Assembly (NCBI GenBank): GCA_027335685.1
Contig: DAHWHN010000132.1
Coordinates: 1-45,872 of the forward strand
Origin: Acidimicrobiaceae bacterium
Lineage (GTDB): Bacteria; Actinomycetota; Acidimicrobiia; Acidimicrobiales; Bog-793
DNA length: 45,872 nucleotides
Direction: 5' to 3'
Under the pieces are notes generated by a model, which made no database searches, was not told where the DNA came from, and saw only the letters and a program-made list of their open reading frames with translations. Position numbers and translations under genes: made by a program. Of the stretch, positions 254 through 12,231 are shown one piece after another; the first letter of the stretch is position 1, and each line of letters opens with the position of its first letter.

Positions 254-2368
254 TCAGGAGCGCGCGAGGATCTCCGCCGAGCGCCACGCGAGCGCCATGA
301 CCGTCAGGACCGGGTTGACGGCGCCGTTCGTGACGTGGACCGAGGAGTCGGCGATCCAGAGGTTGGTGTAGCCGTGGACTCGCCCGTCGGGCGCCGTCAC
401 CGACGTCGGGGGGTCCGCGCCCATGCGGGCCGTGCCGGCCTGGTGCTGGCCGGCGCTCAAGCCCGTGGGAACCGGTGCGCGCCAGGTGCGCAGGGCCCCG
501 GCTTCTGTGAGCCAGGCCTCCGCCCGCTCGCCGAGCAGCGCAGCGGTGCGCGCCGTCTCGGGATGGACGCTGCCGGAGAGCATCGCGACGGCGAGGCCGT
601 AGCGGTCCCGGACCCTCGGCGAGAGACGGACCCGTGAGCTCGCCACCGGGATCTCCTCGGTCGGCCCCATGACGTGGAGCGTCCGCCGGTAGCCGGCGCG
701 CATCGCCTCCTTGCCCGCGAGCCCCCAGCGCGGCGCGTCGGGTGCCAGGCCGTTCGCGAGGTACGACAGGGGCAGCGGGACGAACTCGTTCGCGAGCATC
801 CCGCCGCCGACAACCCCCGGGTTGCCGTGCGCGAACCCGCAGGCGGCCACGGCGGGGCCGGGACCGAGCCCGTCGCGCACCGGCTCGGCGAACAGCCCGA
901 ACGCCCCGGTGTAGCAGTGGCCCTGGAGGTGGCGCCCCACTTGGTCACAGCGGTTGCCGAGGCCCGCTGGCTCGGCGTCGGTCGCGCTGGCGAGCAGGAG
1001 CCTGGCGGTCTCGATCGCTCCGGCTGCGAGCACGACGTGGCCGGCGCGCAGCGTCCTCGGCGCGCCGTCGCGGTCGACGGCGATGACCCCGGCCACGGTT
1101 CCCGGCGCGCCGACGAGGACGCGCGCGACGAGAGCTCCGGTCGCGATGTCGCAGCGACCCGTCGCGAGCGCGCGCGGGATCGCCGTGTTGTGCGTGCCGT
1201 TCTTCGCGTCGAGGTGGCAGGCGAACCCGACGCACATCCCGCACCGCTCGCAGGCAGGCCGGCCGTCGCGGGGGGTCGTGTTGCACAGCAGCGGAGGCGG
1301 CCCGACCTCCCAGCCGAGGCGCCGCGCCGCGTCGCGAAGGAGGACGGCCTCGGCGCTCGCCGGGAAGGCGGGCATCGGGTAGCCCCGGCTGCGAGGTCCC
1401 CGGCTCGACGCGTGGGCGCCGCCGTCGCCCGCCACGCCGACCGTCCACTCGACGTCGCCGTAGTAGGGCTCGAGATCGTCGTAGCCGATCGGCCAGTCGG
1501 CGAGCGAGCTCTCCTCCGGCACGCCGTAGCGGGTCGCCATCGCGAAGTCGTCGGGGAAGAAGCGCCACGCCTGGCCTCCGAAGACGCGGGTGCCGCCTCC
1601 GAGCGTGGCCGCGTTGTTGTGGTAGCCGGGCTCGTGCGGCGCGGTCGTGACCTCGTCGCCGTCGGGCCCGACCAGGCTGCGCGGGTGGCCGGTCGGCGGC
1701 GGCCCGGTGCTGCAGCCGTAGCGGCTGAGGCGGTGGTTGCGGAGGTGGTCGGTACCGACCTGCACCGCGTTCAGCCACTCGCCGCGCTCGAGCACGGCGA
1801 CGCGCAGGCCCGCCGTCGCGAGGACCGCTGCGGCGACGCCGCCGCCGGCGCCCGCCCCGACGACGATCACGTCGTAGGTGTCGCGGAGATCGCCCAGGGC
1901 GCTGGAGCGCGGCACCGCCTCGTCGGGCAGCACCGGACGTGCGCCGACCGGTCGCGCCCGGAAGCCGACCATGTCCCACGCCGGGCGCTGGACATGCACG
2001 TCGCGTCCCGCGTCGCCGTAGTAGGCCTCGGTGACGACGAGGACGAGGGCGTCGCGAAGACGCGCTGCCGTCGGGGTCGCTGCCGCGAGAAGACCGTCTT
2101 GCACCTCGGGGGCGAGCGATGCGAAGCCCTGGCCGTGGACCCGGCGGGCCTCGCTCTCGAGCGAGTCGATGCCCGGGTCGAGGACGTCCTGCCACAGGCG
2201 CGCGTGCGCGCCCGTGGCGGCGCGGTCGAGGTCGTCGAGGACCCCCTCGTCGGTCGCCGAGGGCCAGCCGTCGCCACCCGGCACGATCCGGTCGGCCGCC
2301 GCCGCGACCACGGCGCGGCGCGCCGGGTCCGCGAGCCCGAGCGGGAGCCCCGCCGGACGACCACGCAC
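254..2368 (-). CDS. GMC-family FAD oxidoreductase fused to an N-terminal gluconate-2-dehydrogenase-subunit-3-like domain
   Basis: 704-aa ORF with a GTG start. The first ~120 aa resemble the small subunit-3 family (ends ...VVTEAYYGD). They are followed by the FAD fold YDVIVVGAGAGGGVAAAVLATAGLRVAVLERG and a GMC-type C-terminal domain (NPVLTVMALAWR). The start is 18 nt downstream of the preceding gene's stop. Confidence 0.85.
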   Translation of the reverse strand: MRGRPAGLPLGLADPARRAVVAAAADRIVPGGDGWPSATDEGVLDDLDRAATGAHARLWQDVLDPGIDSLESEARRVHGQGFASLAPEVQDGLLAAATPTAARLRDALVLVVTEAYYGDAGRDVHVQRPAWDMVGFRARPVGARPVLPDEAVPRSSALGDLRDTYDVIVVGAGAGGGVAAAVLATAGLRVAVLERGEWLNAVQVGTDHLRNHRLSRYGCSTGPPPTGHPRSLVGPDGDEVTTAPHEPGYHNNAATLGGGTRVFGGQAWRFFPDDFAMATRYGVPEESSLADWPIGYDDLEPYYGDVEWTVGVAGDGGAHASSRGPRSRGYPMPAFPASAEAVLLRDAARRLGWEVGPPPLLCNTTPRDGRPACERCGMCVGFACHLDAKNGTHNTAIPRALATGRCDIATGALVARVLVGAPGTVAGVIAVDRDGAPRTLRAGHVVLAAGAIETARLLLASATDAEPAGLGNRCDQVGRHLQGHCYTGAFGLFAEPVRDGLGPGPAVAACGFAHGNPGVVGGGMLANEFVPLPLSYLANGLAPDAPRWGLAGKEAMRAGYRRTLHVMGPTEEIPVASSRVRLSPRVRDRYGLAVAMLSGSVHPETARTAALLGERAEAWLTEAGALRTWRAPVPTGLSAGQHQAGTARMGADPPTSVTAPDGRVHGYTNLWIADSSVHVTNGAVNPVLTVMALAWRSAEILARS

Positions 2369-2386
2369 GCGCGCCGGTCCCTGGCC

Positions 2387-3337
2387 TCAGTAGCCGGCGG
2401 ACGGGTCGACGACCCCGTCGAGCGGCAATCCGGCGGCCAGCCGCTCGACGTTGGTCCGGATCCGCTCGGCGAGGAGCGGACGGATCATGTCCCAGGTGTC
2501 GGCCGTGTGCGGGGTGACGAGGCACCGTGGCTCGCGCCAGAGCGGATGGCCTGGTGGCAGCGGCTCGGGATCGGTCACGTCGAGAGCCGCTCCCGCGATC
2601 GCCCCCGAGGCGAGCGCCGAGACGAGCGCCTCGGTGTCGCAGACGGCGCCGCGGGCGACGTTGACGAGCACGGCGCGGCTGTCCATACGGGCGAGCTCCG
2701 GTGCGCCGACGATGCGGGTCGTCTCGGGGGTGAGCGAGAGGGCGAGGAACACGACGAGCGCTCCGGGCAGCGCGTCGGCGAGATCGGGCGTCGTGACCGT
2801 CCGGGCTGCGCCGGCGAGGGGGACCCCGCTGCGGCGCACGACCGTCGCGCGGACGCGGAACGGCTCGAGCAGGCGGAGAAGGGCCTGCGCGATGCCGCCG
2901 CCGCCGACGATCGTGACCTGTTCGCCGAACAGCGACGTTCCTGCAGGTTCACCCCAGGTCGTCGCGCGCACCCGCTCGGGCAGCCTGCGCAAGAGCGCGA
3001 GCGCGAGCAGCAGGGCGTGCTCGGCGACGGGCTCGCCGTAGGCGCCCTTCGCGCAGGTGAAGCGGGGGCCCGAGGCGAGCACGCCTGCCGCGGCGAACCG
3101 CTCGACGCCGGCTGCGGGCAGCTGGACCCAGTCGAGCGCCGGGAGGTCGCGCAGCACCCGCGCGAGCCCGTCGACGTCGCTCCCCGCCGTCCAGACCAGC
3201 CCGTCGGGCGCCGTCGGTCCTGCCGCGTCGAGCGCGATGCCGACACCTCCGCCGGCGCGCACGGCGTCGAGCACCCACGCCTCGGCGACGGGTCCGACCG
3301 CGACGACGGGTCGGGTCGTGGCAGGCGTCCTGCTCAC
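2387..3337 (-). CDS. D-isomer-specific 2-hydroxyacid dehydrogenase family, NAD(P)-binding
   Basis: GTG at 3337-3335 overlaps the upstream TGA (3336-3334), giving a GTGA junction. Motifs seen are VTIVGGGGIAQA, LVNVARG, ALDVTDPEP and TPH. The track ORF 2387..3796 extends further 5' through Arg-rich sequence that looks non-coding. Confidence 0.85.
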   Translation of the reverse strand: MSRTPATTRPVVAVGPVAEAWVLDAVRAGGGVGIALDAAGPTAPDGLVWTAGSDVDGLARVLRDLPALDWVQLPAAGVERFAAAGVLASGPRFTCAKGAYGEPVAEHALLLALALLRRLPERVRATTWGEPAGTSLFGEQVTIVGGGGIAQALLRLLEPFRVRATVVRRSGVPLAGAARTVTTPDLADALPGALVVFLALSLTPETTRIVGAPELARMDSRAVLVNVARGAVCDTEALVSALASGAIAGAALDVTDPEPLPPGHPLWREPRCLVTPHTADTWDMIRPLLAERIRTNVERLAAGLPLDGVVDPSAGY

Positions 3338-4509
3338 GTCGCCTCGATCCCGGCTAGCGCGAGAACGTGCGCCATGCGCCGCACGGCGAGGTCGCCGTCT
3401 GCGAGCAGGCCGCAGCTGTCTGCGAGGCGGAAGCACTGCGCGAGGTGGACGACCGAGCGCCCGGACTGCAGGCCCGCGACCATCGTGAAGTGCGACTGGT
3501 GGCCGTTCAGGTAGGCGAGGAAGACGACCCCGGTCTTGTAGTACGACGTCGGCGCGCCGAAGACGTGGCGCGCAAGCGGGAGGGTCGGATCGAGGCGCCG
3601 GCGGAACCCCGCCACGTCGCCGCAGTCGAGGGCCGCGAGCGCCCAGGCAGCCGCCGGGGCGGCGAAGTCGAAGGCACCGAGCAGCGCGTCGCTGTGGCCC
3701 TCCTCGTCGCCCGCGATCGTCGTCGGGTAGCCGAAGTCGTCGCCGGTGTACATGCGCACGCCTTGCGGGAGCCGCCGACGCACGACGACCTCCCACTCCT
3801 TGTCGAGCAGGGAGAGCTTGATGCCGTCGACCTTGCCCGGGTGGTCCGCGACGATGCCGAGCAGGCAGGTCGTGGCCTGCTCGACGTCGCCTGAGCCGAA
3901 GTAGCCGGCAAGGGCCGGGTCGAACGCGTCGCCCAGCCAGTGCAGGATCGCCGGGGCCCCGAGCGAGGCGAGAACCTTGTCATAGACGTAGGCGTAGTCG
4001 TCGGGTCCCCGGGCGATCCTGCACAGCTCCCGGCTCGCCATGACGACGACGGTCGCCCCGGCCCCCTCCACGGCGGCGCACTGCTCGAGGTAGGCCGCGA
4101 CGACGTCGTCGAGCGTCCGGGCGCTGCCCGGCGGGAGGTGGTCCGGCTGCGCGCCGGCAGCGATCGCACCGCCGACGGTGCGCGCCTCGGCGGCGCTGCG
4201 GACGACGAGCTCGCGCGCGACCGCCCAGTCGAGGCCCATGCCGCGCTGCGCGGTGTCCATCGCGTCGGCCACCCCGAGACCGAGCGCCCAGAGGTGGTGG
4301 CGAAATGCGAGCGTCGCGTCCCAGTCGAGCGAAGGCGGTCCGGGCGGGGTCGTCTCGCCGAGCGGATCGGCCACCACGTGGGCCGCCGCGTAGGCGACTC
4401 GGGACGTGGCCGGCGCGGCACGTCCCGGCAGCGCGGGCGCAGCGCTGCAGACGTAGCGGCGGAGCGTGCCGTCGGGCTCGGGTAGGACGATGCTCGTCAC
4501 CGACTCCAT
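3334..4509 (-). CDS. DUF993 family protein (DHDPS-like fold, function unknown)
   Basis: 391-aa ORF. By-eye match to DUF993 proteins: RVAYAAAHVVADPL, LDWDATLAFRHHLW, AMDTAQRGMGLDW, HWLGDAFDP, YTGDDF. The ATG at 4509 overlaps the LacI 3' end by 13 nt. Confidence 0.8.
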   Translation of the reverse strand: MESVTSIVLPEPDGTLRRYVCSAAPALPGRAAPATSRVAYAAAHVVADPLGETTPPGPPSLDWDATLAFRHHLWALGLGVADAMDTAQRGMGLDWAVARELVVRSAAEARTVGGAIAAGAQPDHLPPGSARTLDDVVAAYLEQCAAVEGAGATVVVMASRELCRIARGPDDYAYVYDKVLASLGAPAILHWLGDAFDPALAGYFGSGDVEQATTCLLGIVADHPGKVDGIKLSLLDKEWEVVVRRRLPQGVRMYTGDDFGYPTTIAGDEEGHSDALLGAFDFAAPAAAWALAALDCGDVAGFRRRLDPTLPLARHVFGAPTSYYKTGVVFLAYLNGHQSHFTMVAGLQSGRSVVHLAQCFRLADSCGLLADGDLAVRRMAHVLALAGIEAT

Positions 4510-5627
4510 CCCCCTTCGCGACCATCGCCGGCACGCGGACCGCTCGGCTCGTCTCCGGAGTCTCGCGCGCCCGGTTGCGCCCGACCCGGTTGCGCCCGTC
4601 CTGGTTGCGCGGTGCTGGCGCGCACGACGAGCTCGACGCCGAGGCGCTCGTCGCGGCGGACGGGGACCGTCTCGCCGAGGACGAGCTCGACGGCGCGACG
4701 CCCGAGCTCGGCCATGGGGACGCGCACGGTCGTGAGACCTGGCTCGAGGTCACGGGCGACGGGGATGTCGTCGACGCCGCACAGGGCGACGTCGCCGGGA
4801 ACGGAGCGCCGGCGCGCGCGCAGCGCGGCGAGGGCGCCGATCGCCATCTGGTCGTTGAGCGCGACGAGGGCGGTGAGCCCCGGCATGGCATCGAGGAGCT
4901 CGGCCGCTGCCCGCTCGCCTCCGTCGCGGGAGAACGCGCCGCTTGCGAGCTGGACATGGCCGGCGTCGACTCCGGACGCGGCGAGGGCGCCGAGGAGGCC
5001 GGCGAGGCGGTCGTCGCTCGCGGTGAGCCCGCCGGGCCCCGTGATGACGGCGACCGAGCGATGGCCGAGCTCGGCGACGTGCTCGCCGAGCAGGCGACCG
5101 GCAGCGACGTTGTCCGGGCGGACGCAGTCGCCGCCGGCGAGGTGGCGGCCGACGACTGCGACCCGCCCGCCGGCGCGTTCGTAGGCGCGGAGCTCGGTTG
5201 CGAGGCGCCGGCTCGTCCCGGCGTCGCTCGAGCCGCTGCCGGCGAGGACGAGCGCCTCGACCCGCCGGGCGCGCGCCCGGCGCACGGTCTCGAGCTCCAA
5301 GGCAGGGTGCCGGCCCGTGTCGCTCACGAGGACGGTCCGGCCCGACGCCCGGGCGGACTCGAGCGCGCCGCGTGTGATCTCGGAGAAGTACGGGTCGGTG
5401 ATGTCGTGGACGACGAGCGCGATCGTGGCGTCGCGCGCGCGAGCGAGGGCCCGTGCGTGCGGGTTGGGCGTGTAGGCGAGCGCGGTCGCGGACTCGAGGA
5501 CCCGGTCGCGTAGGGTCGCGCGGACCGGCCTCGACCCGGCGAGCACGCGCGACGCGGTCGACTCCGACACGCCGGCGCGGCGCGCGACGTCGAGCAGCCG
5601 GACCTCGGCCGGCTCGAGACCGCTCAC
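4497..5627 (-). CDS. LacI-family transcriptional regulator
   Basis: HTH LLDVARRAGVSESTASRVLAG plus a sugar-binding-fold core ending ...GVELVVRAS. GTG at 5627 (residue 287 of the track ORF) overlaps the upstream TGA, giving GTGA. The C-terminal ~40 aa are low complexity (AQPGR x3). Confidence 0.9.
   Translation of the reverse strand: MSGLEPAEVRLLDVARRAGVSESTASRVLAGSRPVRATLRDRVLESATALAYTPNPHARALARARDATIALVVHDITDPYFSEITRGALESARASGRTVLVSDTGRHPALELETVRRARARRVEALVLAGSGSSDAGTSRRLATELRAYERAGGRVAVVGRHLAGGDCVRPDNVAAGRLLGEHVAELGHRSVAVITGPGGLTASDDRLAGLLGALAASGVDAGHVQLASGAFSRDGGERAAAELLDAMPGLTALVALNDQMAIGALAALRARRRSVPGDVALCGVDDIPVARDLEPGLTTVRVPMAELGRRAVELVLGETVPVRRDERLGVELVVRASTAQPGRAQPGRAQPGARDSGDEPSGPRAGDGREGGWSR
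4570..4614. repeat. 15-bp tandem repeat x3 (CCCGGTTGCGCCCGA-like)
   Basis: Units at 4570-4584, 4585-4599 and 4600-4614 (the third is diverged). On the minus strand it encodes AQPGRAQPGRAQPG in the LacI tail, just upstream of the DUF993 start. Confidence 0.7.
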
Positions 5628-6439
5628 GCGACGTGCTCGGCGAAGCGGCGGGCGACGACCGCGAGGGTCTCCTCGGGGTCCGCGTCCCACACCGCGGGGT
5701 TGAAGATCTCGACCTCCACCGGCCCGTCGTAGCCGGTGGCGTCTGCGAGGCGCAGGAAGCGCCGGAGCTCGATCGTGCCGTCGCCGAGCATCCCGCGGCC
5801 CTCGAGGGGGTGCGGCGGAGGAGCGAGCCAGTCCGCGAGCTGGACACCGAGGACCGCGCCGGTTGCGGCGGCGGTCGCAGCCTCGAGGTCCGGGTCCCAC
5901 CAGAGGTGGTAGCTGTCGAGGACGACGCCGACGCCGCCTGGGATCGAGCGCGCGAGCGCGAGCGCCTGGGGCAAGGTGACGACGACGGAGCGGTCGCCGC
6001 AGTACATCGGGTGCATCGGCTCGACCGCGAGGGGAACGCCGGCCGGCCGTGCGTACGCCGCGAGCTCGGCGAGCGCGTCGGCGACCTCGCGCCGTCCTGC
6101 AGCGAGGTCCTTGGTCGCCGCAGGGCCGCAGACGAGCACGAGCATCGCGGCCCCGATCTCGGCGGCCTCGTCGACGGCACGGCGGTTGTCGGCGGCGCGC
6201 CGGCGCCTGCTCGCGTCGTCCGGCGCGCAGAACCACCCGCCGCGGCACAGCGACGAGATCGCGACGCCGGCCGTGTGCGCGCGGGCCCCGAGACGCCCGG
6301 GCCCGTCGGGCGCGAGCCGCTCGCGCCACAGCCCGATCGCCCCGTAGCCGGCACGCGCGCAGCCCTCGATCGCCTGCGCAGTCGACCAGCGCGGGATCGT
6401 CGCCTGGTTCATCGCGAGCCTGCCGAGCGGGGCGTTCAT
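5624..6439 (-). CDS. xylose-isomerase-like TIM-barrel protein (sugar phosphate isomerase/epimerase family)
   Basis: LAMNQATI... N-terminus typical of the family, with AVEPMHP and SYHLWWD motifs. There are two in-frame ATGs (6439 and 6412) created by a 27-bp tandem duplication. The stop overlaps the LacI GTG. Confidence 0.85.
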   Translation of the reverse strand: MNAPLGRLAMNQATIPRWSTAQAIEGCARAGYGAIGLWRERLAPDGPGRLGARAHTAGVAISSLCRGGWFCAPDDASRRRRAADNRRAVDEAAEIGAAMLVLVCGPAATKDLAAGRREVADALAELAAYARPAGVPLAVEPMHPMYCGDRSVVVTLPQALALARSIPGGVGVVLDSYHLWWDPDLEAATAAATGAVLGVQLADWLAPPPHPLEGRGMLGDGTIELRRFLRLADATGYDGPVEVEIFNPAVWDADPEETLAVVARRFAEHVA

Positions 6440-6460
6440 CGCGAGCCCGCCGAGCGGAGC
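6407..6460. repeat. 27-bp tandem duplication spanning the TIM-barrel gene start
   Basis: GTTCATCGCGAGCCTGCCGAGCGGGGC (6407-6433) and GTTCATCGCGAGCCCGCCGAGCGGAGC (6434-6460). On the minus strand this duplicates LAMNAPLG and the ATG. Confidence 0.8.
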
Positions 6461-6542
6461 GCCGTCGGGATCCACGCCCGTCCAAGCCGCGCCCAGGAGG
6501 GCCGCGCCGGTCGCCGTGACGCCCGGAGGCCGTCGTCGGCCG

Positions 6543-7691
6543 TCATGCCCGGGAGCCCGGCACGTCGACCCAGCGCCGCTCGCGCGCCGACGCGAGAGCG
6601 AGCTCGGCGACCTCGACCCCGCGCGCGGCGTCCCGCAGGTCCCACGGGAACGGCTCGTCGGTGACGAGGTGGCGGAGGAAGAGCTCCCACTGGTGGCGGA
6701 ACGCGTTGACCGGGGGGCGACGACCGGGCACCTCGAGCCACGGCGCGCGCGGTGTCGTCGACGCCGCCACGTCGGGGTTCCAGACGTAGCGCGGCGTCGC
6801 GGCTCCCGGCTGGATCCTGCACTCCTGGAGCCCGGCGACGGCGCTCCCGCCCGTGCCGTCCGCATGCAGCACGAACAGGTCGTCACGGTAGGGGCGTGTG
6901 CACCAGGACGCGTTGACCTGCGCGACGGCGCCGCCGGCGAGGCGGAAGATCGCGTACGCGGCATCCTCCGCCGTCGCGTCGTAGGTCCTGCCCCCCTCGT
7001 CGACGCGCACGCTCTCGTGCGTCGCCATCTCGCACAGCACGGACTCGACGGGTGCGAAGAGGTGCTCGAGCAGGTAGCGGAAGTGGCAGAACATGTCGAG
7101 GACGATGCCGCCGCCGTCCTCGGCCCGGTAGTTCCACGACGGCCTCTGAGTCGCCCCGATCGCGTCGGGGAAGACCCAGTAGCCGAACTCGATGCGGATC
7201 GCGAGCAGGCGGCCGAGCGCGCCCGAGTCGAGGACCTCGCGGAGCTTCAACAGGCCCGGGAGGAAGAGCTTGTCCTGGACCGCGCCGTTGCGGACCCCGG
7301 CGCGTTCGGCGAGATCGGCAAGCTCGTAGCCCGCGGCGCTCGTCGTCGCCGACGGCTTCTCGCAGTAGACGTCCTTGCCCGCGGCGATCGCGAGCGCCAC
7401 GGCCTGCTCCCGGCGCGCCGTCGTCTGGGAGTCGAAGTAGACCGTGTCCGCCGGGTCCGCGAGGCACGCGTCGAGGTCGGTGCTGACGCGCTCGATGTCG
7501 TGCGCGGCGGCGAGAGACCGGAGGCGCTCGAGGTCACGCCCGACGAGCACGGGGTCCGGCCAGATCGTCACGCCACCGACCTCGAGGCCGCCGTCTGCGC
7601 GCATGGCCGCGATCGAGCGCGCGAGGTGCTGGACGCGCCCCATGCGGCCGGTGACGCCGTTCATGATGATCCCGACGCGCTGCCGTGCCAC
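6543..7691 (-). CDS. Gfo/Idh/MocA-family NAD(P)-dependent oxidoreductase
   Basis: GTG at 7691 (residue 41 of the track ORF) is preceded by GGAGGGGAGG. Rossmann N-terminus VGIIMNGVTGRMG and a VYCEKP motif are present. It is the first gene of the minus-strand operon. Confidence 0.85.
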   Translation of the reverse strand: MARQRVGIIMNGVTGRMGRVQHLARSIAAMRADGGLEVGGVTIWPDPVLVGRDLERLRSLAAAHDIERVSTDLDACLADPADTVYFDSQTTARREQAVALAIAAGKDVYCEKPSATTSAAGYELADLAERAGVRNGAVQDKLFLPGLLKLREVLDSGALGRLLAIRIEFGYWVFPDAIGATQRPSWNYRAEDGGGIVLDMFCHFRYLLEHLFAPVESVLCEMATHESVRVDEGGRTYDATAEDAAYAIFRLAGGAVAQVNASWCTRPYRDDLFVLHADGTGGSAVAGLQECRIQPGAATPRYVWNPDVAASTTPRAPWLEVPGRRPPVNAFRHQWELFLRHLVTDEPFPWDLRDAARGVEVAELALASARERRWVDVPGSRA

Positions 7692-7759
7692 GCCGCCTCC
7701 CCTCCTACGCGCTCCGGTGCCGTCGCGCCCCCAGGCAGCATCGCGTGCCGCTCCGCTTG

Positions 7760-7777
7760 CTGGCAAGCGCTTGCCAG
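7760..7777. promoter_or_regulatory. perfect 18-bp palindrome, candidate LacI-family operator
   Basis: CTGGCAAGC|GCTTGCCAG, an even-length palindrome with a central CG-rich core. It lies 69-86 nt upstream of the Gfo/Idh/MocA GTG, in the divergent region shared with rhaM. Confidence 0.5.
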
Positions 7778-7850
7778 ACGAGCCGCTTGCGGCAGCGACG
7801 TCGAGGGGCAAGGATCGGCAACCGCGGGCCGGTCCGGTTGGCTCGCGCCC

Positions 7851-7882
7851 TGGGCTCGCTCAATGGGCTCGCTCAATGGGCT
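7851..7882. repeat. 13-bp tandem repeat (TGGGCTCGCTCAA x2 plus a partial third copy)
   Basis: Units at 7851-7863 and 7864-7876 are identical, and 7877-7882 is a partial third unit. The array ends 46 nt (7883-7927) upstream of the rhaM ATG at 7928. Confidence 0.7.
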
Positions 7883-7927: not shown

Positions 7928-8248
7928 ATGGAGCGGGTCTGCTTCCGTTTGCACGTGCGTGCCGAGATGATCGAGGCCTACACGGAGGCGCACCGGTCGG
8001 TCTGGCCGGAGATGCGCGCCGCGCTCGCGGCGAGCGGGTGGCGCAACTACTCGCTGTTCCTCGCGGACGACGGCCTGCTCGTCGGCTACCTCGAGTGCGA
8101 CAGCCTGGACGAGGCCACGGCCGCGATGGCCGCGACGGAGGTCAACGCCCGCTGGCAGGCGGCGATGGCCGCCTACTTCGACGGCCTCGACGGGGCGGCC
8201 CCCGACGAGGGGATCGTGCCGTTGCCAGAGATCTTCCACCTCGACTGA
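7928..8248 (+). CDS. rhaM: L-rhamnose mutarotase family protein
   Basis: 106 aa: MERVCFRLHVRAEMIEAYTEAHRSVWPEM...YSLF...WQAAMAAYF. The ATG at 7928 is preceded by GGAGGGG. The track ORF starts earlier, at 7685. Confidence 0.85.
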   Translation: MERVCFRLHVRAEMIEAYTEAHRSVWPEMRAALAASGWRNYSLFLADDGLLVGYLECDSLDEATAAMAATEVNARWQAAMAAYFDGLDGAAPDEGIVPLPEIFHLD

Positions 8249-8359
8249 CGGGCGGGGAGACCGGACCGGGAGAGCGACCGGGGAGTGGGCCGGGAGACAG
8301 GTGACAGGCGGTCTCGTGCGGGAGCCCGCCGAGAGCGACCGGGGGAGTAGATTGGGCAC

Positions 8360-8722
8360 GTGCCCGACGGGTCGCTGCGACGAGATGGTGGCCCCTCCGA
8401 CCGACCGGGCGTCCTGCGGCTTTCCGCAATCGACAACGTCCTCGTGGCGCTGCGTGAGCTCCAGCCCGGCGAGGCCGTGGCCGACGGGCCGCGATCGTTC
8501 GCCACGCGCGCGGCCGTGCCCTTCGGTCACAAGGTCGCCGCCGACGACATCGACCGCGGCGCTGCGATCGTCAAGTACGGCGAGGTCGTCGGCCGAGCCA
8601 CGCAGCAGATCGCGCGCGGCGACCACGTCCATGTCCACAACGTCGTGAGCGCACGGCTGCCCGGGCACACCGGCACGGACCCGCGCCCGGCGGCGCGCCG
8701 CGCGGAGGGCGGGCGACCGTGA
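8360..8722 (+). CDS. SAF-domain protein (UxaA-family dehydratase N-terminal module as a separate ORF)
   Basis: IDNVLVAL...PFGHKVA...IVKYGEVVGRAT..IARGDHVHVHNV matches the UxaA/GarD N-terminal SAF domain. GTG at 8360 with GGGGGAG upstream. The stop overlaps the next GTG (GTGA 8719-8722). Confidence 0.75.
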   Translation: MPDGSLRRDGGPSDRPGVLRLSAIDNVLVALRELQPGEAVADGPRSFATRAAVPFGHKVAADDIDRGAAIVKYGEVVGRATQQIARGDHVHVHNVVSARLPGHTGTDPRPAARRAEGGRP

Positions 8723-9543
8723 CCTTGTCCGGGTACGCCCGACCGGACGGCACGATCGGTGCGCGCAACCACGTCCTCGTGCTCCCGTCGGTCGTCTGCT
8801 CCGCGCACGTCGCCGAGCGGATCGCAGGGACCGATGCCGTCGCGATCGGTCATCCGCACGGCTGCGGCCAGGTCGGCGCTGACGCGATCCACGCGGCCGA
8901 GGTCTTCGCGGGAATCGCTGCCCACCCGAACGTCGCCGGGGTCCTCGTCGTCGGCCTCGGCTGCGAGACGGTCCAGGGGACCGAGCTCGCGGCAGAGATC
9001 GGTGCCCGCGGCCAGCTCGTCGAGCTGCTCACGGTCCAGGGCTCGGGCGGGAGCGCGCGCACCGTCGAGCGCGGGCGCACAGTCGTCGGACAGCTGCTCG
9101 CCCGGGCAGCGTCGCAGCACAGGACGGCTGCCGGCGACGACCAGCTGGTGCTCGGACTCGACGACTCGGCGGCACCGTTCGCCCCGGTCCTGCGAGACGC
9201 CGCCACGGCCGCACGCATGCGCCTGGTCGAGCCGCATGCCGGGACCGGCCCGCAGGTGCACGCCGATCTCGCCGTGCGCGGCGCCCAGGTGATCGTCTCC
9301 TGGTGCCCGCCGGGGGAGGCACCGCGCGGCTTTGCCGTCTGCCCGGTCGTCGCCGTGGCAGCCGACGCCGACGATTTCGCAGCGATGCCGGACGACTTTG
9401 ACCTCGGTAGCGACGGTCCCCTCGACGCGGTGGCGGCCCGGATCCTCGCCTCGGCACGTGCGGTGTTCTCGGGCGAGCCGAGCGCCGCGGAGCGCCGTGG
9501 CGCACACGAGTTCGAGCTCCGCCGGTTGACGAGGTCGATGTGA
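8719..9543 (+). CDS. UxaA-family paralog, shortened (Cys-motif middle domain plus short C-terminal segment)
   Basis: GYARPDGTIGARNHVLVLPSVVCSAH, IGHPHGCGQ, HPNVAGVLVVGLGCE, and the C-terminal end ...EFELRRL. It lacks the GGSD/TTIEEK/TTGRGT core seen in the next ORF. GTGA junctions occur at both ends. Confidence 0.7.
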   Translation: MTLSGYARPDGTIGARNHVLVLPSVVCSAHVAERIAGTDAVAIGHPHGCGQVGADAIHAAEVFAGIAAHPNVAGVLVVGLGCETVQGTELAAEIGARGQLVELLTVQGSGGSARTVERGRTVVGQLLARAASQHRTAAGDDQLVLGLDDSAAPFAPVLRDAATAARMRLVEPHAGTGPQVHADLAVRGAQVIVSWCPPGEAPRGFAVCPVVAVAADADDFAAMPDDFDLGSDGPLDAVAARILASARAVFSGEPSAAERRGAHEFELRRLTRSM

Positions 9544-10742
9544 CGGTCGTACCCGGTGGCGTGCCGCCTGGCGCGTTGGGTCTCGGGCCGGTTCGCGACG
9601 TGCAGGTGAGCGGCTTCCGCCGCCCTGACGGCCGTCTCGGGGTCCGCGACCACCTGCTGGTGCTGCCGGCACGGGGGTCGGCCAGCCTCGCGGCCGCACG
9701 GATCGCCGCGGCGGTGCCCGGCGCGGTCGCCGTCGCGCACGACGCCAGGGGGGCGGCGGAGCCCGAGCCGGAGCGGATCGCCCGCACCCTGGTCGGCTTC
9801 GGGACGAACCCCAACGTCGGAGCGGTCCTCGTCGTCGGCGTGCGTGCCGACGACGCCTGGCTCGCGGACGCACTGCGGGACGCGGGACAGCGCAGCGCCT
9901 TCGTCGCCCTCGCCGAGCACCGCGGCACCGACGGTGCGGTCGCCGCGGGCGCCGTGCTCGCGGCCCGCCTCGCTGCAGACCTTGCACGTGACGTGCGTAG
10001 CCCGGGATCGCTCGCAGACGTCGTGCTCGGGCTCGAGTGCGGCGGATCGGACGCGCTGTCGGGCATCACGGCCAACCCGGGGCTCGGGGTCGCGAGCGAT
10101 CTGCTCGTCGCGTCGGGGGGCGCGTCGATCCTCGCGGAGACGCCCGAGCTCATCGGCGCCGAGGAGGCGCTCGCGGCCCGTGCGGTCTCGCCCGAGGTCG
10201 CCGCAAGCGTCCGCCGCGCCATCCTCGGTTTCGAGTCCGCGATCCGCGGGCTCGGCGTCGACGTGCGCGGGGCGCAGCCGTCCCCGGGCAACCAGGCTGG
10301 CGGCCTGACGACGATCGAGGAGAAGGCCCTCGGATCCGCGAAAAAAGGAGGTGCCGCCCCGGTCTCCGGGGTCGTCGACTTCGCCGAGCAGGTGCGCGCG
10401 CCCGGGCTGTTCGTCATGGACACCCCCGGTCACGACATCGAGCAGATGGTGGGGATGGTCGCCGGGGGCGCGCAGGTGGTCGCGTTCACGACGGGGCGGG
10501 GTACGCCGACAGGCTCCCCGATCGCTCCGTGCGTGAAGATCTCGACGAGCACCGAGCTCTACGACCGGCTTGCCGGCGACATCGACCTCGACGCTGGCGG
10601 CGTGCTGACGGGCACGGAGTCCCTCGAGCGCCTCGGAGCGCGGATCCTCGCGGCGATCGCGGACGTGTGCAACGGCCGATTGACCGCAAGCGAGCGGCAG
10701 GGCAACAGGGAGTTCGCGCTGAGCCGGACCGTCTACTCCTGA
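9540..10742 (+). CDS. UxaA-family (altronate/galactarate dehydratase-like) large subunit
   Basis: LECGGSDALSGITANP, GGLTTIEEKALGS, MDTPGHD, AFTTGRGTPTGSP, REFALSR. The N-terminal half aligns to the previous ORF, but the Cys motifs are replaced (PARGSASL, AHDARG, GVRAD). Confidence 0.85.
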   Translation: MTVVPGGVPPGALGLGPVRDVQVSGFRRPDGRLGVRDHLLVLPARGSASLAAARIAAAVPGAVAVAHDARGAAEPEPERIARTLVGFGTNPNVGAVLVVGVRADDAWLADALRDAGQRSAFVALAEHRGTDGAVAAGAVLAARLAADLARDVRSPGSLADVVLGLECGGSDALSGITANPGLGVASDLLVASGGASILAETPELIGAEEALAARAVSPEVAASVRRAILGFESAIRGLGVDVRGAQPSPGNQAGGLTTIEEKALGSAKKGGAAPVSGVVDFAEQVRAPGLFVMDTPGHDIEQMVGMVAGGAQVVAFTTGRGTPTGSPIAPCVKISTSTELYDRLAGDIDLDAGGVLTGTESLERLGARILAAIADVCNGRLTASERQGNREFALSRTVYS

Positions 10743-10792
10743 CGCTCGGTTCCTGACGTTCGGTCCCTGACGTTCGCTGCCTGACCGGCGCA
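10737..10792. repeat. 14-bp tandem repeat x4 (TCCTGACGNTCGGT-like) starting on the uxaA-like stop codon
   Basis: Units at 10737-10750, 10751-10764, 10765-10778 and 10779-10792. Each carries a TGA (10740, 10754, 10768, 10782), so stops fall in all three frames. Confidence 0.75.
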
Positions 10793-10837
10793 TCGGTCGC
10801 CCGGGCGCGAGGCAAGGGGACCGGCCGGAGGAGGTGC

Positions 10838-10867
10838 TTGACGGCTTCCTCCGAATGTACGTACAAT
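10838..10867 (+). promoter_or_regulatory. near-consensus sigma-70-type promoter (TTGACG-18 nt-TACAAT)
   Basis: -35 TTGACG at 10838-10843 and -10 TACAAT at 10862-10867, in a local AT-rich patch. An in-frame GTG at 10873 lies 5 nt after the -10, which suggests a leaderless transcript. Confidence 0.5.
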
Positions 10868-10872
10868 ATGGC

Positions 10873-11709
10873 GTGACCCCGCTCGTCTTCGTCGTCGTGC
10901 TGCTCGCGATATCGGTGCTCGCAGGCGTCCTCGGCTCGCTTGTCGGTCTCGGTGGTGGCGTCGTCGTCGTGCCGGTGCTCACCTTGCTGTTCCACATCGA
11001 CATCCGGCTCGCGATCGGCGCGTCGATCGTCTCGGTCATCGCGACGTCGAGCGGCGCCGCGGCGACCTACGTCCGGGAGCGCATGACGAACCTGCGCGCC
11101 GGGATGTTCCTCGAGATCGCGACGACGACCGGCGCGGTGAGCGGGGCGTACCTCACGACGGTGTTCCCGGCACGGGCGCTGTTCATCCTCTTCGGCGTCG
11201 TCCTGTCGTACTCGGCGTTCGCGATCTTCCACAAGCGGCATGCGACGGCGGTCCTTACGAGCTCCGACGACCGGATCGCCAACTACTTCGACCTCCACGG
11301 CTCGTACTACGACGAGGCCGAGAAGCAGGAGATCGCCTACAAGGTCACCGGCACCAAGGTCGGCCTCGCGATGATGTACGTCGCGGGGATGGTGAGCGCG
11401 CTGCTCGGGATCGGGTCGGGTGCGCTGAAGGTCCCGGCGATGGACCTCGCCATGCACCTGCCGATGAAGGTGTCGACCGCGACGAGCAACTTCATGATCG
11501 GCGTCACGGCCGCGGCGAGCGCCGGCTTCTACTTCGCACGCGGCCAGATCGACCCGATCATCGCGGCGCCGGTCGCCGTCGGCGTGCTCGGCGGCGCGAT
11601 GTTCGGCTCGCGCGTCCTCGGCAAGATCACGAACACGTCCGTGCGCATCATCTTCGTCGTCGTGCTCGTCGTCGTCGCGATCGAGATGCTCCAGCGGGGG
11701 GTGCTCTAG
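10873..11709 (+). CDS. TauE/SafE (TSUP, DUF81) family anion exporter
   Basis: Multi-TM protein with LGSLVGLGGGVVVVPVL and GIGSGALKVP motifs. The start was chosen at GTG 10873 (leaderless model). Alternative starts are ATG 10855 and GTG 10834 (the track start). Confidence 0.85.
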   Translation: MTPLVFVVVLLAISVLAGVLGSLVGLGGGVVVVPVLTLLFHIDIRLAIGASIVSVIATSSGAAATYVRERMTNLRAGMFLEIATTTGAVSGAYLTTVFPARALFILFGVVLSYSAFAIFHKRHATAVLTSSDDRIANYFDLHGSYYDEAEKQEIAYKVTGTKVGLAMMYVAGMVSALLGIGSGALKVPAMDLAMHLPMKVSTATSNFMIGVTAAASAGFYFARGQIDPIIAAPVAVGVLGGAMFGSRVLGKITNTSVRIIFVVVLVVVAIEMLQRGVL

Positions 11710-12231
11710 ATGGCCGACACGACCCGAGCCGGAGCGGCGGGCGCTGACGGCACGTCCGGGGCTCGCGCCGCGGGCGCGCTCGGCAGCGCCGGCACGGTCG
11801 GCACGTCTGGCGCAGGTCAGCCGCGGCGCAAGCGGGAGGTGAACGAGGAGAAGGTCCGCCAGTCGGAGATCGCGATCAGCCTCGTGCTCCGGATCGGCGT
11901 GAGCGTCGCCGTCGCCCTCGTGATGGCCGGCCTCGGGCTGACCTTCGCCCGGCACCCGGGCTACGCGCACCTCTCGGGCAGCTCCTACCACCCGCTCACG
12001 ATGCTGAGCTCGAAGTTCCCCCACACGATCGGCCAGCTCGGCCACGCGCTCGCCATAGGGGACGGGCGCGGCCTCATCGGCCTCGGGCTCGTCGTGCTCA
12101 TCGCGACGCCGGTGCTGCGCGTCGCGGTCGCGGTCCTCACCTTTGCCTACGAGAAGGACCCGCCGATGACGATCGTCACGCTGTTCGTCCTCGCGGTCCT
12201 GCTCAGCTCGTTCTTCATCGGGGGCGCGTGA
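11710..12231 (+). CDS. DUF1634 membrane protein (usual partner of TauE/DUF81)
   Basis: The ATG immediately follows the TauE TAG (11707-11709). A low-complexity N-terminus is followed by TM segments SLVLRIGVSVAVALVMAGLGL and LVVLIATPVLRVAVAVLTF. Confidence 0.8.
   Translation: MADTTRAGAAGADGTSGARAAGALGSAGTVGTSGAGQPRRKREVNEEKVRQSEIAISLVLRIGVSVAVALVMAGLGLTFARHPGYAHLSGSSYHPLTMLSSKFPHTIGQLGHALAIGDGRGLIGLGLVVLIATPVLRVAVAVLTFAYEKDPPMTIVTLFVLAVLLSSFFIGGA

Follow-up and report, generated by a model that had tools for sequence, protein, structure and literature searches.

The window, by which we mean the whole stretch of 45,872 nucleotides analysed here, carries at positions 254–7691 six co-directional genes on the minus strand in the order GFO, TIM, LacI, DUF993, 2HADH and GMC, where GFO stands for Gfo/Idh/MocA, TIM for a xylose-isomerase-like TIM barrel, 2HADH for a D-2-hydroxyacid dehydrogenase and GMC for a Gluconate_2-dh3::GMC fusion. 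The initial annotation had described such a six-gene run, and it was recovered both in its families (by Pfam) and in its coordinates, which a GC3-based gene call returned unchanged. The features of the locus are as follows.

254–2368, minus strand: GMC flavoprotein dehydrogenase fused to a Gluconate_2-dh3 small-subunit domain, accessory (PF13618, GMC_oxred_N, GMC_oxred_C)
2387–3337, minus strand: 2HADH, glyoxylate/hydroxypyruvate-reductase-like, lineage-specific accessory (PF02826)
3334–4509 (alternative GTG start at 4500), minus strand: DUF993 protein, predicted Schiff-base lyase (PF06187)
4497–5627, minus strand: LacI-family repressor, within the operon (PF00356, Peripla_BP)
5624–6439, minus strand: TIM, xylose-isomerase-like (AP_endonuc_2) barrel, core triad member (PF01261, E 3e-35)
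6543–7691, minus strand: GFO, Gfo/Idh/MocA NAD(P)-dependent dehydrogenase/reductase, first gene of the operon, core triad member (Pfam PF22725, PF02894, PF01408)
7736–7747, minus strand: conserved block CACGCGATGCTG, candidate promoter element 12 nt downstream of the operator
7760–7777, no strand: perfect 18-bp palindrome CTGGCAAGCGCTTGCCAG, predicted LacI operator between the divergent operons (palindrome, footprinting)
7928–12989, plus strand: divergent neighbour operon, syntenic only in close relatives and outside the conserved core (Pfam, NCBIfam), comprising the next seven entries
7928–8248, plus strand: RhaM-like mutarotase
8444–8722, plus strand: SAF subunit
8719–9543, plus strand: UxaA/GarD-type dehydratase, first piece
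9600–10742, plus strand: UxaA/GarD-type dehydratase, second piece
10873–11709, plus strand: TauE-family permease
11710–12231, plus strand: DUF1634
12228–12989, plus strand: GntR/HutC regulator
14090–15700: MFS gene, nearby

GTGA overlaps join TIM to LacI and DUF993 to 2HADH, the latter amounting to translational coupling, and LacI and DUF993 overlap by 13 nt if DUF993 begins with the ATG at 4509 or by GTGA if it begins with the GTG at 4500, to which a 388-aa cluster member points as the probable start. The statement that the genes are joined by overlaps does not extend to GFO/TIM and 2HADH/GMC, which are separated by gaps of 103 and 18 nt. Likewise, the six-gene run itself contains no transporter, as originally stated, but the TauE-family permease and the MFS gene lie close by.

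We propose that the operon is repressed by its own LacI at the predicted operator, and hence would be inducible and catabolic. The palindrome, already seen in the initial annotation, is unique in the window even when up to 3 mismatches are allowed (expected number in shuffles, 0), and phylogenetic footprinting bears out its conservation: the 15-bp core GGCAAGCGCTTGCCA stays invariant where the surrounding intergenic DNA of relatives has diverged, and of the 24 Streptomyces loci that have a divergent LacI gene, 23 carry it as AAGCGCTTGC at a distance of 38–147 bp upstream of GFO. The triad also has a LacI gene beside it at loci from Streptomyces, Chloroflexota and other Actinomycetota. The repressor encoded here has a C-terminal tail with a PGRAQ repeat and scores below every NCBIfam equivalog cut-off. 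Next to the operator, the CACGCGATGCTG block is nearly invariant in an intergenic alignment of five sequences and is a possible promoter element, although no match to the sigma-70 consensus was found there. The divergent operon may be co-regulated through the shared intergenic operator. Its UxaA/GarD-type dehydratase has its cysteines split between two large ORFs, which by the criterion of PMC6336799 makes an acid-sugar dehydratase likelier than a sulfolactate sulfo-lyase, and in close relatives a convergent ABC-transporter/GFO/TIM/UxaC operon begins just past the left edge of the window.

Comparison of 80 DUF993 loci from many bacterial lineages established that the conserved unit is the GFO–DUF993–TIM triad and not all six genes, as the initial annotation had implied. 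A GFO orthologue adjoins DUF993 in 72 of the 80 loci and a TIM orthologue in 71, and among the 73 loci with room on both flanks DUF993 lies between the two in 64, so that the suspected linkage with these genes proved tight. One Gemmatimonadetes locus carries a GFO::DUF993 in-frame ORF, and at some loci GFO is replaced by an SDR or by a shikimate-dehydrogenase-like enzyme while DUF993–TIM persists. In contrast, 2HADH is found at DUF993 loci only in the window and in close Acidimicrobiales relatives (L081–L085), and GMC is sporadic (2/80 genome loci), the fused gene being present in the 83% lineage of close relatives and absent from the 88% lineage. This distribution would suit a transcriptional mosaic with no common pathway, in which only GFO, TIM and DUF993 cooperate and 2HADH and GMC serve unrelated reactions; we consider this very improbable, given the GTGA overlap between DUF993 and 2HADH, a 2HADH family specificity that fits the glycerate theme developed below, and the recurrence of unfused GMC homologues near GFO–DUF993 on plasmid pAO1 and in L039. 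A stand-alone Gluconate_2-dh3 small-subunit ORF lies ahead of GMC in L039; a 96-aa ORF upstream of GMC on pAO1 had no Pfam match. The nearest solved relatives of 2HADH are the Haloferax D-2-hydroxyacid dehydrogenase 5MH5 and glyoxylate/hydroxypyruvate reductases, and those of GMC are the alpha subunit of FAD-glucose dehydrogenase (6A2U/8HDD) and the large subunit of fructose dehydrogenase (7W2J), at E 1e-47 to 1e-49. Since only 16 residues precede the PF13618 domain (residues 17–99), the GMC protein has no room for a Tat signal.

The DUF993 protein matches PF06187 over its full length (residues 1–382 of 382, E 3e-173), confirming the family assignment, and PDB entry 4DNH, an ‘uncharacterized protein’, at E 7e-138. 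Its AF2 model (pLDDT 85) has a DHDPS/NAL-like (beta/alpha)8 fold, that of class I aldolases, with Foldseek matches to DHDPS, KDG-arate dehydratase and L-KDA dehydratase (target-normalised TM 0.7–0.84, 10–16% identity); the DHDPS-like fold first suggested for DUF993 is thus borne out, and the claim that the run lacks an aldolase, correct by Pfam, fails for DUF993 itself. Invariant over 199 sequences are K231 (in G-I-K, on predicted strand 6), G256-D257-D258 and H190, the last at the position of the catalytic Tyr of DHDPS. The G229-I-K231 and G256-D-D motifs match G159-I-K161 and G186-D-D of E. coli DapA with the same 25-residue spacing, both falling on predicted strands 6 and 7. From this register of motifs and secondary structure, rather than a structural superposition, we infer that K231 is the Schiff-base lysine and predict that DUF993 is a Schiff-base lyase. 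Our search of the literature found neither a published activity for DUF993, in agreement with the initial annotation, nor a biochemical function for the GFO–DUF993–TIM set.

The two partners of DUF993 have nearest characterised relatives that support the general keto-sugar/keto-cyclitol chemistry earlier proposed for them. TIM, with invariant residues E140, H143, D175, H178, D203, E242 and E244, is predicted to be a metal-dependent keto-isomerase or dehydratase. When a profile of its orthologues from DUF993 loci was searched against the PDB, the closest characterised relative among the best 60 of 68 matches (E≤0.01) was the inosose isomerase IolI (1I60, E 2e-22), followed by QuiC1 (5HMQ) and TM0416 (2ZVR); 7VPF, 3JU2 and 3QC0 are orphan structures orthologous to TIM, as 3OQB is to GFO. 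GFO orthologues at DUF993 loci share 52–58% identity, and the catalytic motifs EKP (K112) and D199-x3-H203 are invariant in 18 of them. The nearest characterised GFO relatives are LgdA (74 bits, among the best characterised matches of the GFO profile), scyllo-inositol/L-glucose dehydrogenase and 1,5-anhydrofructose reductase, enzymes whose substrates are ring secondary alcohols and ketones.

The Lgd, Dgp/Car and YcjS/YcjR systems rely on pairs of GFO- and TIM-type proteins for 3-keto-glycoside chemistry, and the initial annotation had accordingly favoured an ‘oxidise/eliminate/reduce’ module for 3-keto-glycosides or anhydrosugars. Under this reading GFO or GMC would oxidise C3 of a glycoside, TIM eliminate the aglycone, DUF993 hydrate or rearrange the enone, and a reductase act last. 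Besides LgdA, this scheme can draw on the resemblance of GMC and its small-subunit domain to FAD sugar dehydrogenases and on L092, where GH36 and CUT1 ABC-transporter genes are close to the triad. However, the sole 3-keto-glycoside enzyme among the best 60 of 68 TIM matches is the 3-keto-D-glucoside 4-epimerase 6WN6, a weak match (37 bits) far behind IolI, QuiC1 and TM0416, and none of those 60 bears the name of a lyase for 3-keto-glycosides, levoglucosan or C-glycosides. Moreover, GFO scores 37.6 bits against a levoglucosan dehydrogenase cut-off of 650, and GMC is not conserved with the triad. The likeness to the levoglucosan (LgdA/LgdB), C-glycoside (DgpA/DgpBC, CarA/CarBC) and YcjS/YcjR systems, namely an oxidase of Gfo/Idh/MocA or GMC type alongside a xylose-isomerase-like barrel acting on a keto-pyranose, is weak and at family level; those systems offer no precedent for a component with a Schiff-base, DHDPS-type fold, and their gene contexts differ. 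We regard this module as quite unlikely.

IolI and QuiC1 as TIM relatives, together with the inositol dehydrogenases among those of GFO, would instead suit a cyclitol or hydroaromatic-acid route mirroring quinate to protocatechuate, in which the dehydrogenase gives a cyclic beta-hydroxy-ketone, a Lys231/His190 Schiff-base dyad of DUF993 like that of type I dehydroquinase dehydrates it or opens the ring, and TIM carries out a second dehydration or an isomerisation. In two unrelated lineages, those of L030 and Paraburkholderia L102, the gene immediately upstream of DUF993 is shikimate-dehydrogenase-like; proteobacterial loci have carboxylate-type transporters (a TctC label from sequence alone) and an enolase-superfamily partner, and H190 takes the place of the DHDPS Tyr. 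As in quinate/shikimate catabolism (dehydrogenase, type I dehydroquinase, QuiC/QsuB dehydratase), a dehydrogenase would be combined with a Schiff-base barrel and an AP_endonuc_2 barrel, and QuiC is the top NCBIfam match of TIM, though a weak one (33 to 50 bits). Yet DUF993 resembles DHDPS/NAL, not DHquinase_I, in the Foldseek list, the type I dehydroquinase analogy being one of motif position and not of superposition; protocatechuate genes are not linked, aromatic ring-cleavage and iolD/B/C/J genes and inositol-type transporters are not consistently found nearby, and the presence of glycerate kinase and aldehyde dehydrogenase genes among the neighbours speaks for a C3 product with an open chain. 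We therefore think this route unlikely, though worth weighing.

At other loci the genes around DUF993 suggest a link with sugar acids, uronates, CoA esters and glycerate and not with glycosides, for the cleavage of which such recurrent neighbours would be unexpected. Uronate and sugar-acid genes, enolase-type dehydratases (proteobacteria, L091, L097), CoA-ester enzymes and glycerate kinase recur; UxaE is found in L091, pectate lyase in L089 and alginate lyase in L039, and glycerate kinase adjoins or lies near DUF993 on pAO1, S. meliloti pSym, Paracoccus pTAV3 and a Rhodococcus plasmid. Considering these contexts, our best model, to which we give a probability of about 0.4, is that the triad, as keto-isomerase, dehydrogenase and Schiff-base lyase, converts a keto(-deoxy) sugar acid or keto-cyclitol to pyruvate and a C3 unit ending as glycerate. 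The IolI-like TIM would interconvert keto isomers of the six-carbon substrate (analogous to KduI or IolI), GFO would oxidise or reduce an adjoining ring or chain carbonyl (analogous to KduD or IolG), and Lys231 of DUF993 would capture the 2-oxo (beta-hydroxy-carbonyl) intermediate so formed as a Schiff base, followed by C–C cleavage to pyruvate and a C3 aldehyde or acid that leads to glycerate without a kinase step. In this lineage 2HADH may interconvert the 2-oxo and 2-hydroxy forms of the C3 product as a hydroxypyruvate/glycerate-type enzyme, and the fused GMC flavoprotein may provide an alternative FAD-dependent oxidation. The sugar-acid or uronate substrate is suggested by UxaA/GarD-type, RhaM, UxaC, UxaE, pectate/alginate lyase and enolase-superfamily neighbours, the C3/glycerate end by glycerate kinase in four contexts, the pAO1 aldehyde dehydrogenase and the coupled 2HADH, and the lyase role by the fold and DapA-like register of DUF993.

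Several observations count against this best model. No sequence-profile similarity between DUF993 and DHDPS/NAL (PF00701) was found, and a 2-oxo-acid substrate is not assured because DHDPS/NAL Tyr133 is H190 in DUF993 and the carboxylate-binding GxTGE is replaced by MDTAQRG. The closest GFO and TIM relatives use neutral substrates (cyclitols and pyranoses) instead of acids; at many loci (Streptomyces, L086) the triad stands without a nearby sugar-acid gene; and the contexts are heterogeneous, with luciferase-like oxidoreductases and NMT1-type ABC transporters as well as the CoA-ester enzymes.

Two known kinds of pathway resemble our best model in part. Like B. subtilis IolG/IolI and T. maritima IolG/IolM/IolN/IolO (which leads to tagaturonate), the triad pairs a Gfo/Idh/MocA protein with an AP_endonuc_2 barrel presumably acting on a keto-cyclitol or keto-acid, in agreement with the IolI and TM0416 matches of TIM and the uronate genes (UxaC, UxaE, UxaA-type) near the triad; unlike them, GFO scores 53 bits against the IolG equivalog cut-off of 355 and iolD/B/C/J/A genes are absent here. 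DUF993 is the invariant partner in the triad, and we know of no iol pathway with such a DHDPS-fold component. Non-phosphorylative sugar-acid pathways (archaeal KDG aldolase, which ends at glycerate via glycerate kinase; A. brasilense L-KDA dehydratase; A. tumefaciens Udh–Gli–Gci–KdgD) proceed from a dehydrogenase through an acid-sugar dehydratase (enolase or UxaA/GarD) to a Schiff-base TIM-barrel enzyme of the DHDPS/NAL family, in which the best structural matches of DUF993 fall. In contrast to these enzymes, DUF993 lies outside PF00701 by sequence and lacks the Tyr and GxTGE motifs, its IolI-like partner is obligatory, there is no conserved lactonase, and conservation of the triad does not extend to the dehydratase.

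A Weimberg-type scheme for the oxidative breakdown of pentoses or hexuronates would make GFO a sugar 1-dehydrogenase and DUF993 a dehydratase of 2-keto-3-deoxy-acids, like KdgD or L-KDA dehydratase and not a lyase, yielding 2-oxoglutarate semialdehyde. The Foldseek matches to keto-deoxy-galactarate and L-KDA dehydratases and the UxaA/GarD- or enolase-type dehydratases nearby would agree with it, and a passage in PMC8190789, crediting Mihasan et al. 2013 (PMID 23063486), cites the pAO1 cluster (sugar ABC, GMC, AldH, GFO, DUF993) as an ‘oxidative xylose degradation pathway’. We nevertheless see it as improbable, with a real if small chance, since the scheme leaves the conserved TIM without a role, glycerate kinase in four contexts misfits a 2-oxoglutarate end product, and aldehyde dehydrogenase is seen beside triad genes on pAO1 only.

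The triad recurs in many soil bacteria, and the locus may represent a repressor-controlled operon for sugar or sugar-acid breakdown built around an orphan enzyme. The pAO1 sugar cluster of Paenarthrobacter nicotinovorans differs from it in having aldehyde dehydrogenase, glycerate kinase and an unfused GMC, with no TIM, LacI or 2HADH over the 19 kb examined, but has orthologues of GFO (48% identity), DUF993 (51%) and GMC (33%) within a single co-directional run that also includes a sugar ABC transporter.

The six minus-strand genes of the initial annotation were recovered in this window of ~75% G+C, with the same coordinates and families, by a GC3-based gene call and by Pfam. Carbohydrate operons under LacI control, drawn like this one from known superfamilies, are nothing unusual; what is new here is an invariant component with no assigned reaction.

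Genes of the six-gene operon, with supporting profiles
6543–7691, minus strand: Gfo/Idh/MocA dehydrogenase (GFO); PF22725, PF02894, PF01408
5624–6439, minus strand: xylose-isomerase-like TIM barrel (TIM); PF01261
4497–5627, minus strand: LacI regulator; PF00356 and Peripla_BP
3334–4509, minus strand: DUF993 protein; PF06187, E 3e-173, full length
2387–3337, minus strand: D-2-hydroxyacid dehydrogenase (2HADH); PF02826
254–2368, minus strand: Gluconate_2-dh3::GMC fusion (GMC); PF13618, GMC_oxred_N, GMC_oxred_C

The genes had been described as joined by GTGA or 13-nt overlaps, and this holds for TIM/LacI and DUF993/2HADH (GTGA) and for LacI/DUF993, whereas GFO and TIM are separated by a 103-nt gap and 2HADH and GMC by one of 18 nt. 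The LacI/DUF993 overlap amounts to 13 nt with the ATG at 4509 or to GTGA with the GTG at 4500, and the GTG start is favoured by a 388-aa cluster member. The TIM start codon falls within a 27-bp tandem duplication (6407–6461) that provides two in-frame ATGAAC starts, M1 and M10, and TIM orthologue alignments start around residues 5–8. Shortly before the DUF993 overlap the LacI C-terminal tail carries a low-complexity PGRAQ repeat, encoded by 2.7 copies of a 15-bp repeat (4570–4610). Downstream of GMC, the left window end carries a 9-bp tandem repeat, GGTGGCACG, in 9.7 copies, with further short repeats, within 9–98 and 122–181.

Scanning one genome per species with a degenerate pattern gave 595 DUF993 loci, and in the best 80 of these neighbours were called by tblastn with the window proteins; the 80 come from Streptomyces, Bradyrhizobium, Microvirga, Azospirillum, Burkholderiales and Marinobacterium, and from Acidobacteriota, Chloroflexota, Gemmatimonadota, Rokubacteria, Verrucomicrobiota and Bacillota. 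A GFO orthologue (52–58% identity) lies directly upstream of DUF993 in 72 of the 80 and a TIM orthologue (33–54% identity) directly downstream in 71; where the sequence extends far enough to either side (73 loci), both flank it in 64 (median gaps 53 and 33 nt), which bears out the proposed co-occurrence of DUF993 with these two genes. The same searches found GMC at two of the 80 loci and 2HADH at none, so that the six genes do not stand as one conserved module. Because GFO, DUF993 and TIM (the triad) are common in this setting and 2HADH and GMC are not, the six-gene run is a widespread three-gene cassette with lineage-specific additions. That it is instead a transcriptional mosaic, six genes without a common pathway, we regard as highly improbable. 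In close Acidimicrobiales relatives (L081–L085, DUF993 83–88% identical) the order GFO-TIM-LacI-DUF993-2HADH is retained, GMC being present in one lineage and absent from the other. Beyond GMC these relatives have a convergent operon of UxaC, TIM, GFO and ABC-transporter genes, which would fall just past the left edge of the window. In a Gemmatimonadetes MAG (QHUU01000090.1, locus L039, 8654–11149) one in-frame ORF encodes both GFO and DUF993, with GFO at residues 41–421, DUF993 at 450–832 and a linker of ~28 residues; this could be a true fusion or a stop codon lost in the MAG. Among the family representatives no other DUF993 domain fusion was found, long matches carrying no second domain.

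The assignment to DUF993 is secure (576.6 bits against a PF06187 cut-off of 24, covering profile positions 1–382 of 382), and, as had been supposed, the family has no activity assigned to it, whether in Pfam, NCBIfam or the PDB or in the literature that could be searched. It is compact and very highly conserved: 361 representatives are found at E<=1e-30, and across 199 sequences conservation reaches at least 97% at ~100 positions. Its sole PDB match by sequence is 4DNH, an 'uncharacterized protein' (S. meliloti SMc04132; phmmer E 7e-138), to which the AF2 model aligns in Foldseek with 57% identity and a TM of 0.93. The expected DHDPS-like fold was recovered in that model (pLDDT 85; Foldseek probability 1.0, target-normalised TM 0.7–0.84, 10–16% identity), which has the predicted (beta/alpha)8 barrel and C-terminal helical domain of the DHDPS/NAL class I aldolase superfamily. 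Since hhalign gave no match between DUF993 and either E. coli DHDPS (DapA) or two further sequences of the DHDPS family (probability <1%), the link is a structural one only; nor did the DHDPS/NAL profile PF00701 match DUF993. Within this frame, 199 sequences share an invariant G229-I-K231 on predicted strand 6 and G256-D-D after strand 7, and the K-to-G spacing of 25 residues is identical to that of DapA K161/G186 (G159-I-K161, G186-D-D). Motif and predicted strand register thus place K231 putatively at the position of the Schiff-base lysine. By register, the catalytic tyrosine on strand 5 (DapA Tyr133) corresponds to H190, and the carboxylate motif GxTGE (GTTGES) after strand 2 is replaced by MDTAQRG. 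The Foldseek matches beyond 4DNH are chains of DHDPS, keto-deoxy-galactarate dehydratase (KdgD) and L-KDA dehydratase; we consider a Weimberg-type dehydratase role for DUF993 unlikely.

Both partners of DUF993 have solved but orphan orthologues, 3OQB for GFO and 7VPF, 3JU2 and 3QC0 for TIM. GFO keeps its catalytic motifs, EKP (K112) and D199-x3-H203, and its closest characterised relatives are levoglucosan dehydrogenase, scyllo-inositol/L-glucose dehydrogenase and 1,5-anhydrofructose reductase (67–74 bits). Among characterised PDB entries, a profile of 19 TIM orthologues finds IolI (inosose isomerase) first (E 2e-22), then QuiC1 and TM0416, and the closest families among the 60 matches listed are IolI, QuiC1, TM0416, UlaE and ketose 3-epimerases. 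The 3-keto-glycoside scheme of the initial annotation was examined by asking whether GFO is an orthologue of LgdA, DgpA or CarA and TIM a lyase related to LgdB, DgpC or CarC, and it fares poorly on both counts. GFO scores 37.6 bits against an NF052479 cut-off of 650, LgdA (74 bits) and DgpA (48 bits) being PDB matches at family level only, and no lyase so named is found among the 60 PDB matches listed of 68 at E<=0.01, a negative that holds if the PDB copy includes such structures under names that can be recognised. We now hold this scheme to be quite improbable. The myo-inositol iol pathway differs likewise: GFO reaches 53 bits against the IolG equivalog cut-off (TIGR04380) of 355, and no other iol family (iolE/D/B/C/J/A) occurs in the window neighbourhood.

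The settings of DUF993 in other bacteria follow a general pattern, [NAD(P) dehydrogenase]-DUF993-TIM, repeatedly linked to carboxylic-acid or uronate chemistry and to glycerate. In Streptomyces, where a LacI gene goes with it, and in some other Actinomycetota, of which L086 and L096 lack that gene, the triad occurs by itself. Many loci of Pseudomonadota, chiefly of Bradyrhizobium, Microvirga, Azospirillum and several Burkholderiales, have ahead of GFO-DUF993-TIM a TetR regulator, an NMT1/SsuA-type ABC transporter or TctC-like binding protein, and C9, a cluster of 467-aa enolase-superfamily proteins without a Pfam model (L007, 7414–8817, and 30 other loci). C9, annotated as 'hypothetical' at source, lies directly upstream of the triad in Alpha- and Betaproteobacteria and occurs also in Terriglobia and Rokubacteria loci; it keeps the enolase motifs K-x-K, D, E, D and K (K214-x-K216, D247, E282, D306, K329/K332), and its AF2 model is poor (pLDDT 54), Foldseek confirming the enolase superfamily only. 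MR_MLE-family enolases adjoin the triad in L091 and L097. Uronate genes occur near DUF993 (UxaC in the close relatives, UxaE in L091), as do a pectate lyase and a cupin in L089, and the L039 order is alginate lyase, Gluconate_2-dh3 small subunit, GMC, MFS transporter, GFO::DUF993, TIM. Plasmid pAO1 has a sugar ABC transporter and a small ORF, then GMC and aldehyde dehydrogenase, and last GFO, DUF993 and glycerate kinase, a cluster referred to, in a passage of PMC8190789 citing Mihasan 2013, as an oxidative xylose pathway.

On three further plasmids (S. meliloti pSym, Rhodococcus and Paracoccus pTAV3; L099, L100 and L101) DUF993 follows CoA-transferase, acyl-CoA dehydrogenase and SDR genes, with ETF beside the acyl-CoA dehydrogenase on two of the three, enoyl-CoA hydratase on those of S. 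meliloti and Paracoccus, glycerate kinase and aldo/keto reductases on all three, and an annotated TIM gene after DUF993 on those of Paracoccus and Rhodococcus. This CoA-ester setting resembles the acyl-CoA route for deoxyribonate but lacks a thiolase, and the paper on the deoxyribonate oxidative pathway mentions no DUF993-type gene. Related SDR-MaoC-CoA-transferase sets occur in L093 and L094 and probably in L006, judging by the matching sizes of three genes ahead of DUF993. In L030 and Paraburkholderia a shikimate-dehydrogenase-like gene stands directly ahead of DUF993; that DUF993 carries out a type I dehydroquinase-like dehydration, or a ring opening, of a keto-cyclitol or hydroaromatic acid seems to us a reading of low probability.

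Considering these settings together with the putative catalytic lysine, on which the model rests, we favour, with a probability of about 0.4, a scheme of TIM isomerase, dehydrogenase and DUF993 Schiff-base lyase. TIM would act as a keto-isomerase, in a role like that of IolI or KduI; the dehydrogenase, like KduD or IolG, would set the adjacent carbonyl or alcohol; and DUF993 would cleave a 2-oxo or beta-hydroxy-carbonyl acid to pyruvate and a C3 fragment. The latter would then be converted to glycerate, elsewhere through aldehyde dehydrogenase and glycerate kinase, the candidate for this conversion in the window being the hydroxypyruvate-reductase-like 2HADH. Such a scheme would account for a self-contained cassette with no linked kinase and with acid-sugar dehydratases and polyuronate lyases nearby; it leaves the CoA-ester modules and NMT1-type transporters unexplained.

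It is a tentative suggestion, and on balance a doubtful one, that DUF993 represents a new family of Schiff-base C-C lyases which, with an IolI-like TIM and an interchangeable dehydrogenase (Gfo/Idh/MocA, SDR or AroE-like), would form an unrecognized kinase-independent route from a C6 compound, a keto-deoxy sugar acid or keto-cyclitol, to pyruvate and C3 (and on to glycerate). If true, the KdgK/KdgA or IolC/IolJ steps would be bypassed in this way by a wide range of bacteria. DUF993 is spread over major soil lineages (among them Streptomyces, Bradyrhizobium, Sinorhizobium, Acidobacteriota, Chloroflexota, Gemmatimonadota and Rokubacteria), and knowing its reaction would give thousands of genes an annotation, fill a gap in the catabolism of carbohydrates and sugar acids in soil and could give the class I aldolase fold a new reaction type. 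With crystal structures lacking a function in hand for all three proteins (3OQB, 4DNH and 3JU2/3QC0/7VPF), the triad is a well-defined target for function discovery, if not a surprising one in kind.

Of the accessory enzymes, 2HADH is closest to the Haloferax D-2-hydroxyacid dehydrogenase and to glyoxylate/hydroxypyruvate reductases, and the GMC domain to the catalytic subunits of FAD-glucose dehydrogenase and fructose dehydrogenase (E 1e-47 to 1e-49). In the membrane complexes of this type the GMC catalytic subunit is accompanied by a cytochrome c subunit and by a small subunit (Gluconate_2-dh3) with a Tat signal. In the window the Gluconate_2-dh3 domain is present but fused to GMC, its PF13618 match begins at residue 17, the 16 residues ahead leaving no room for a Tat signal, and no cytochrome subunit lies beside the gene.

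The LacI protein has an N-terminal LacI HTH and a periplasmic-binding-protein-like effector domain (Pfam), and a conserved CG-centred palindrome lies nearby. The perfect 18-bp palindrome claimed for the promoter region is indeed present (CTGGCAAGCGCTTGCCAG, 7760–7777), with no second copy in the window even at three mismatches and 0 expected by chance. Its 15-bp core, GGCAAGCGCTTGCCA, is invariant across five aligned intergenic regions whose flanks have diverged, and a block downstream of the core, CACGCGATGCTG (7736–7747), is also kept in them. Of 24 Streptomyces loci whose LacI gene is divergent, 23 have sites of the type TAGAAAGCGCTTGCT(G/A) 38–147 bp upstream of GFO, and these share the core AAGCGCTTGC with the window palindrome; loci without a LacI gene have no operator-like site closer than five mismatches. 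The simplest reading is a dedicated, orthologous LacI regulon with the palindrome as its predicted operator, through which the inducer is experimentally approachable. An Rfam scan matched no family, and a scan for sigma-70-type promoters and intrinsic terminators found none. Upstream of the operator, the rhaM/GFO intergenic region holds 3.3 copies of a 13-bp unit, CATTGAGCGAGCC on the minus strand (7840–7882), that is not kept in relatives.

On the far side of the predicted operator from the six-gene operon is a divergent one.

Divergent operon and its dehydratase genes
7928–12989, plus strand: divergent operon of RhaM-like mutarotase, SAF subunit, two UxaA/GarD-type pieces, TauE permease, DUF1634 and GntR regulator
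8444–10742, plus strand: UxaA/GarD-type dehydratase in three ORFs, a 92-aa SAF subunit and pieces of 274 and 380 aa
8719–9543, plus strand: 274-aa piece; 'second' domain intact with C27, C49 and C82 kept, C domain degenerate
9600–10742, plus strand: 380-aa piece; second domain degenerate, C domain intact with C147 (LECGGSD)

This complementary degeneration suggests that the three ORFs may form a heterotrimer rebuilding a single iron site, and the enzyme looks like a three-piece Fe-dependent acid-sugar dehydratase of UxaA/GarD type. A sulfonate pathway was considered, prompted here by the SuyAB-like dehydratase with TauE and in Bradyrhizobium by an SsuA-like binding protein with sulfopyruvate-decarboxylase-like genes. 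Sulfolactate sulfo-lyase SuyAB with a TauE/SuyZ exporter shares the heteromeric layout, but among UxaA/GarD enzymes the four conserved cysteines are absent only in SuyAB (PMC6336799), and C27, C49, C82 and C147, their equivalence judged by motif, are all kept. As the TPP subunits also fall below equivalog cut-offs and no sulfonate-type gene is kept with the triad outside narrow clades, the hypothesis was dropped.

The TauE/SafE-family permease and DUF1634 protein (10873–12231, plus strand) follow the dehydratase genes; TauE appears more conserved than the catabolic genes, since it is 98% identical in a relative whose DUF993 is just 88% identical. Adjoining the GntR regulator are a YgiD-like extradiol dioxygenase of the LigB family (12964–13788, minus strand; NF007914 above cut-off) and a DHA2-family MFS efflux pump (14090–15700, plus strand), both of them syntenic in close relatives.
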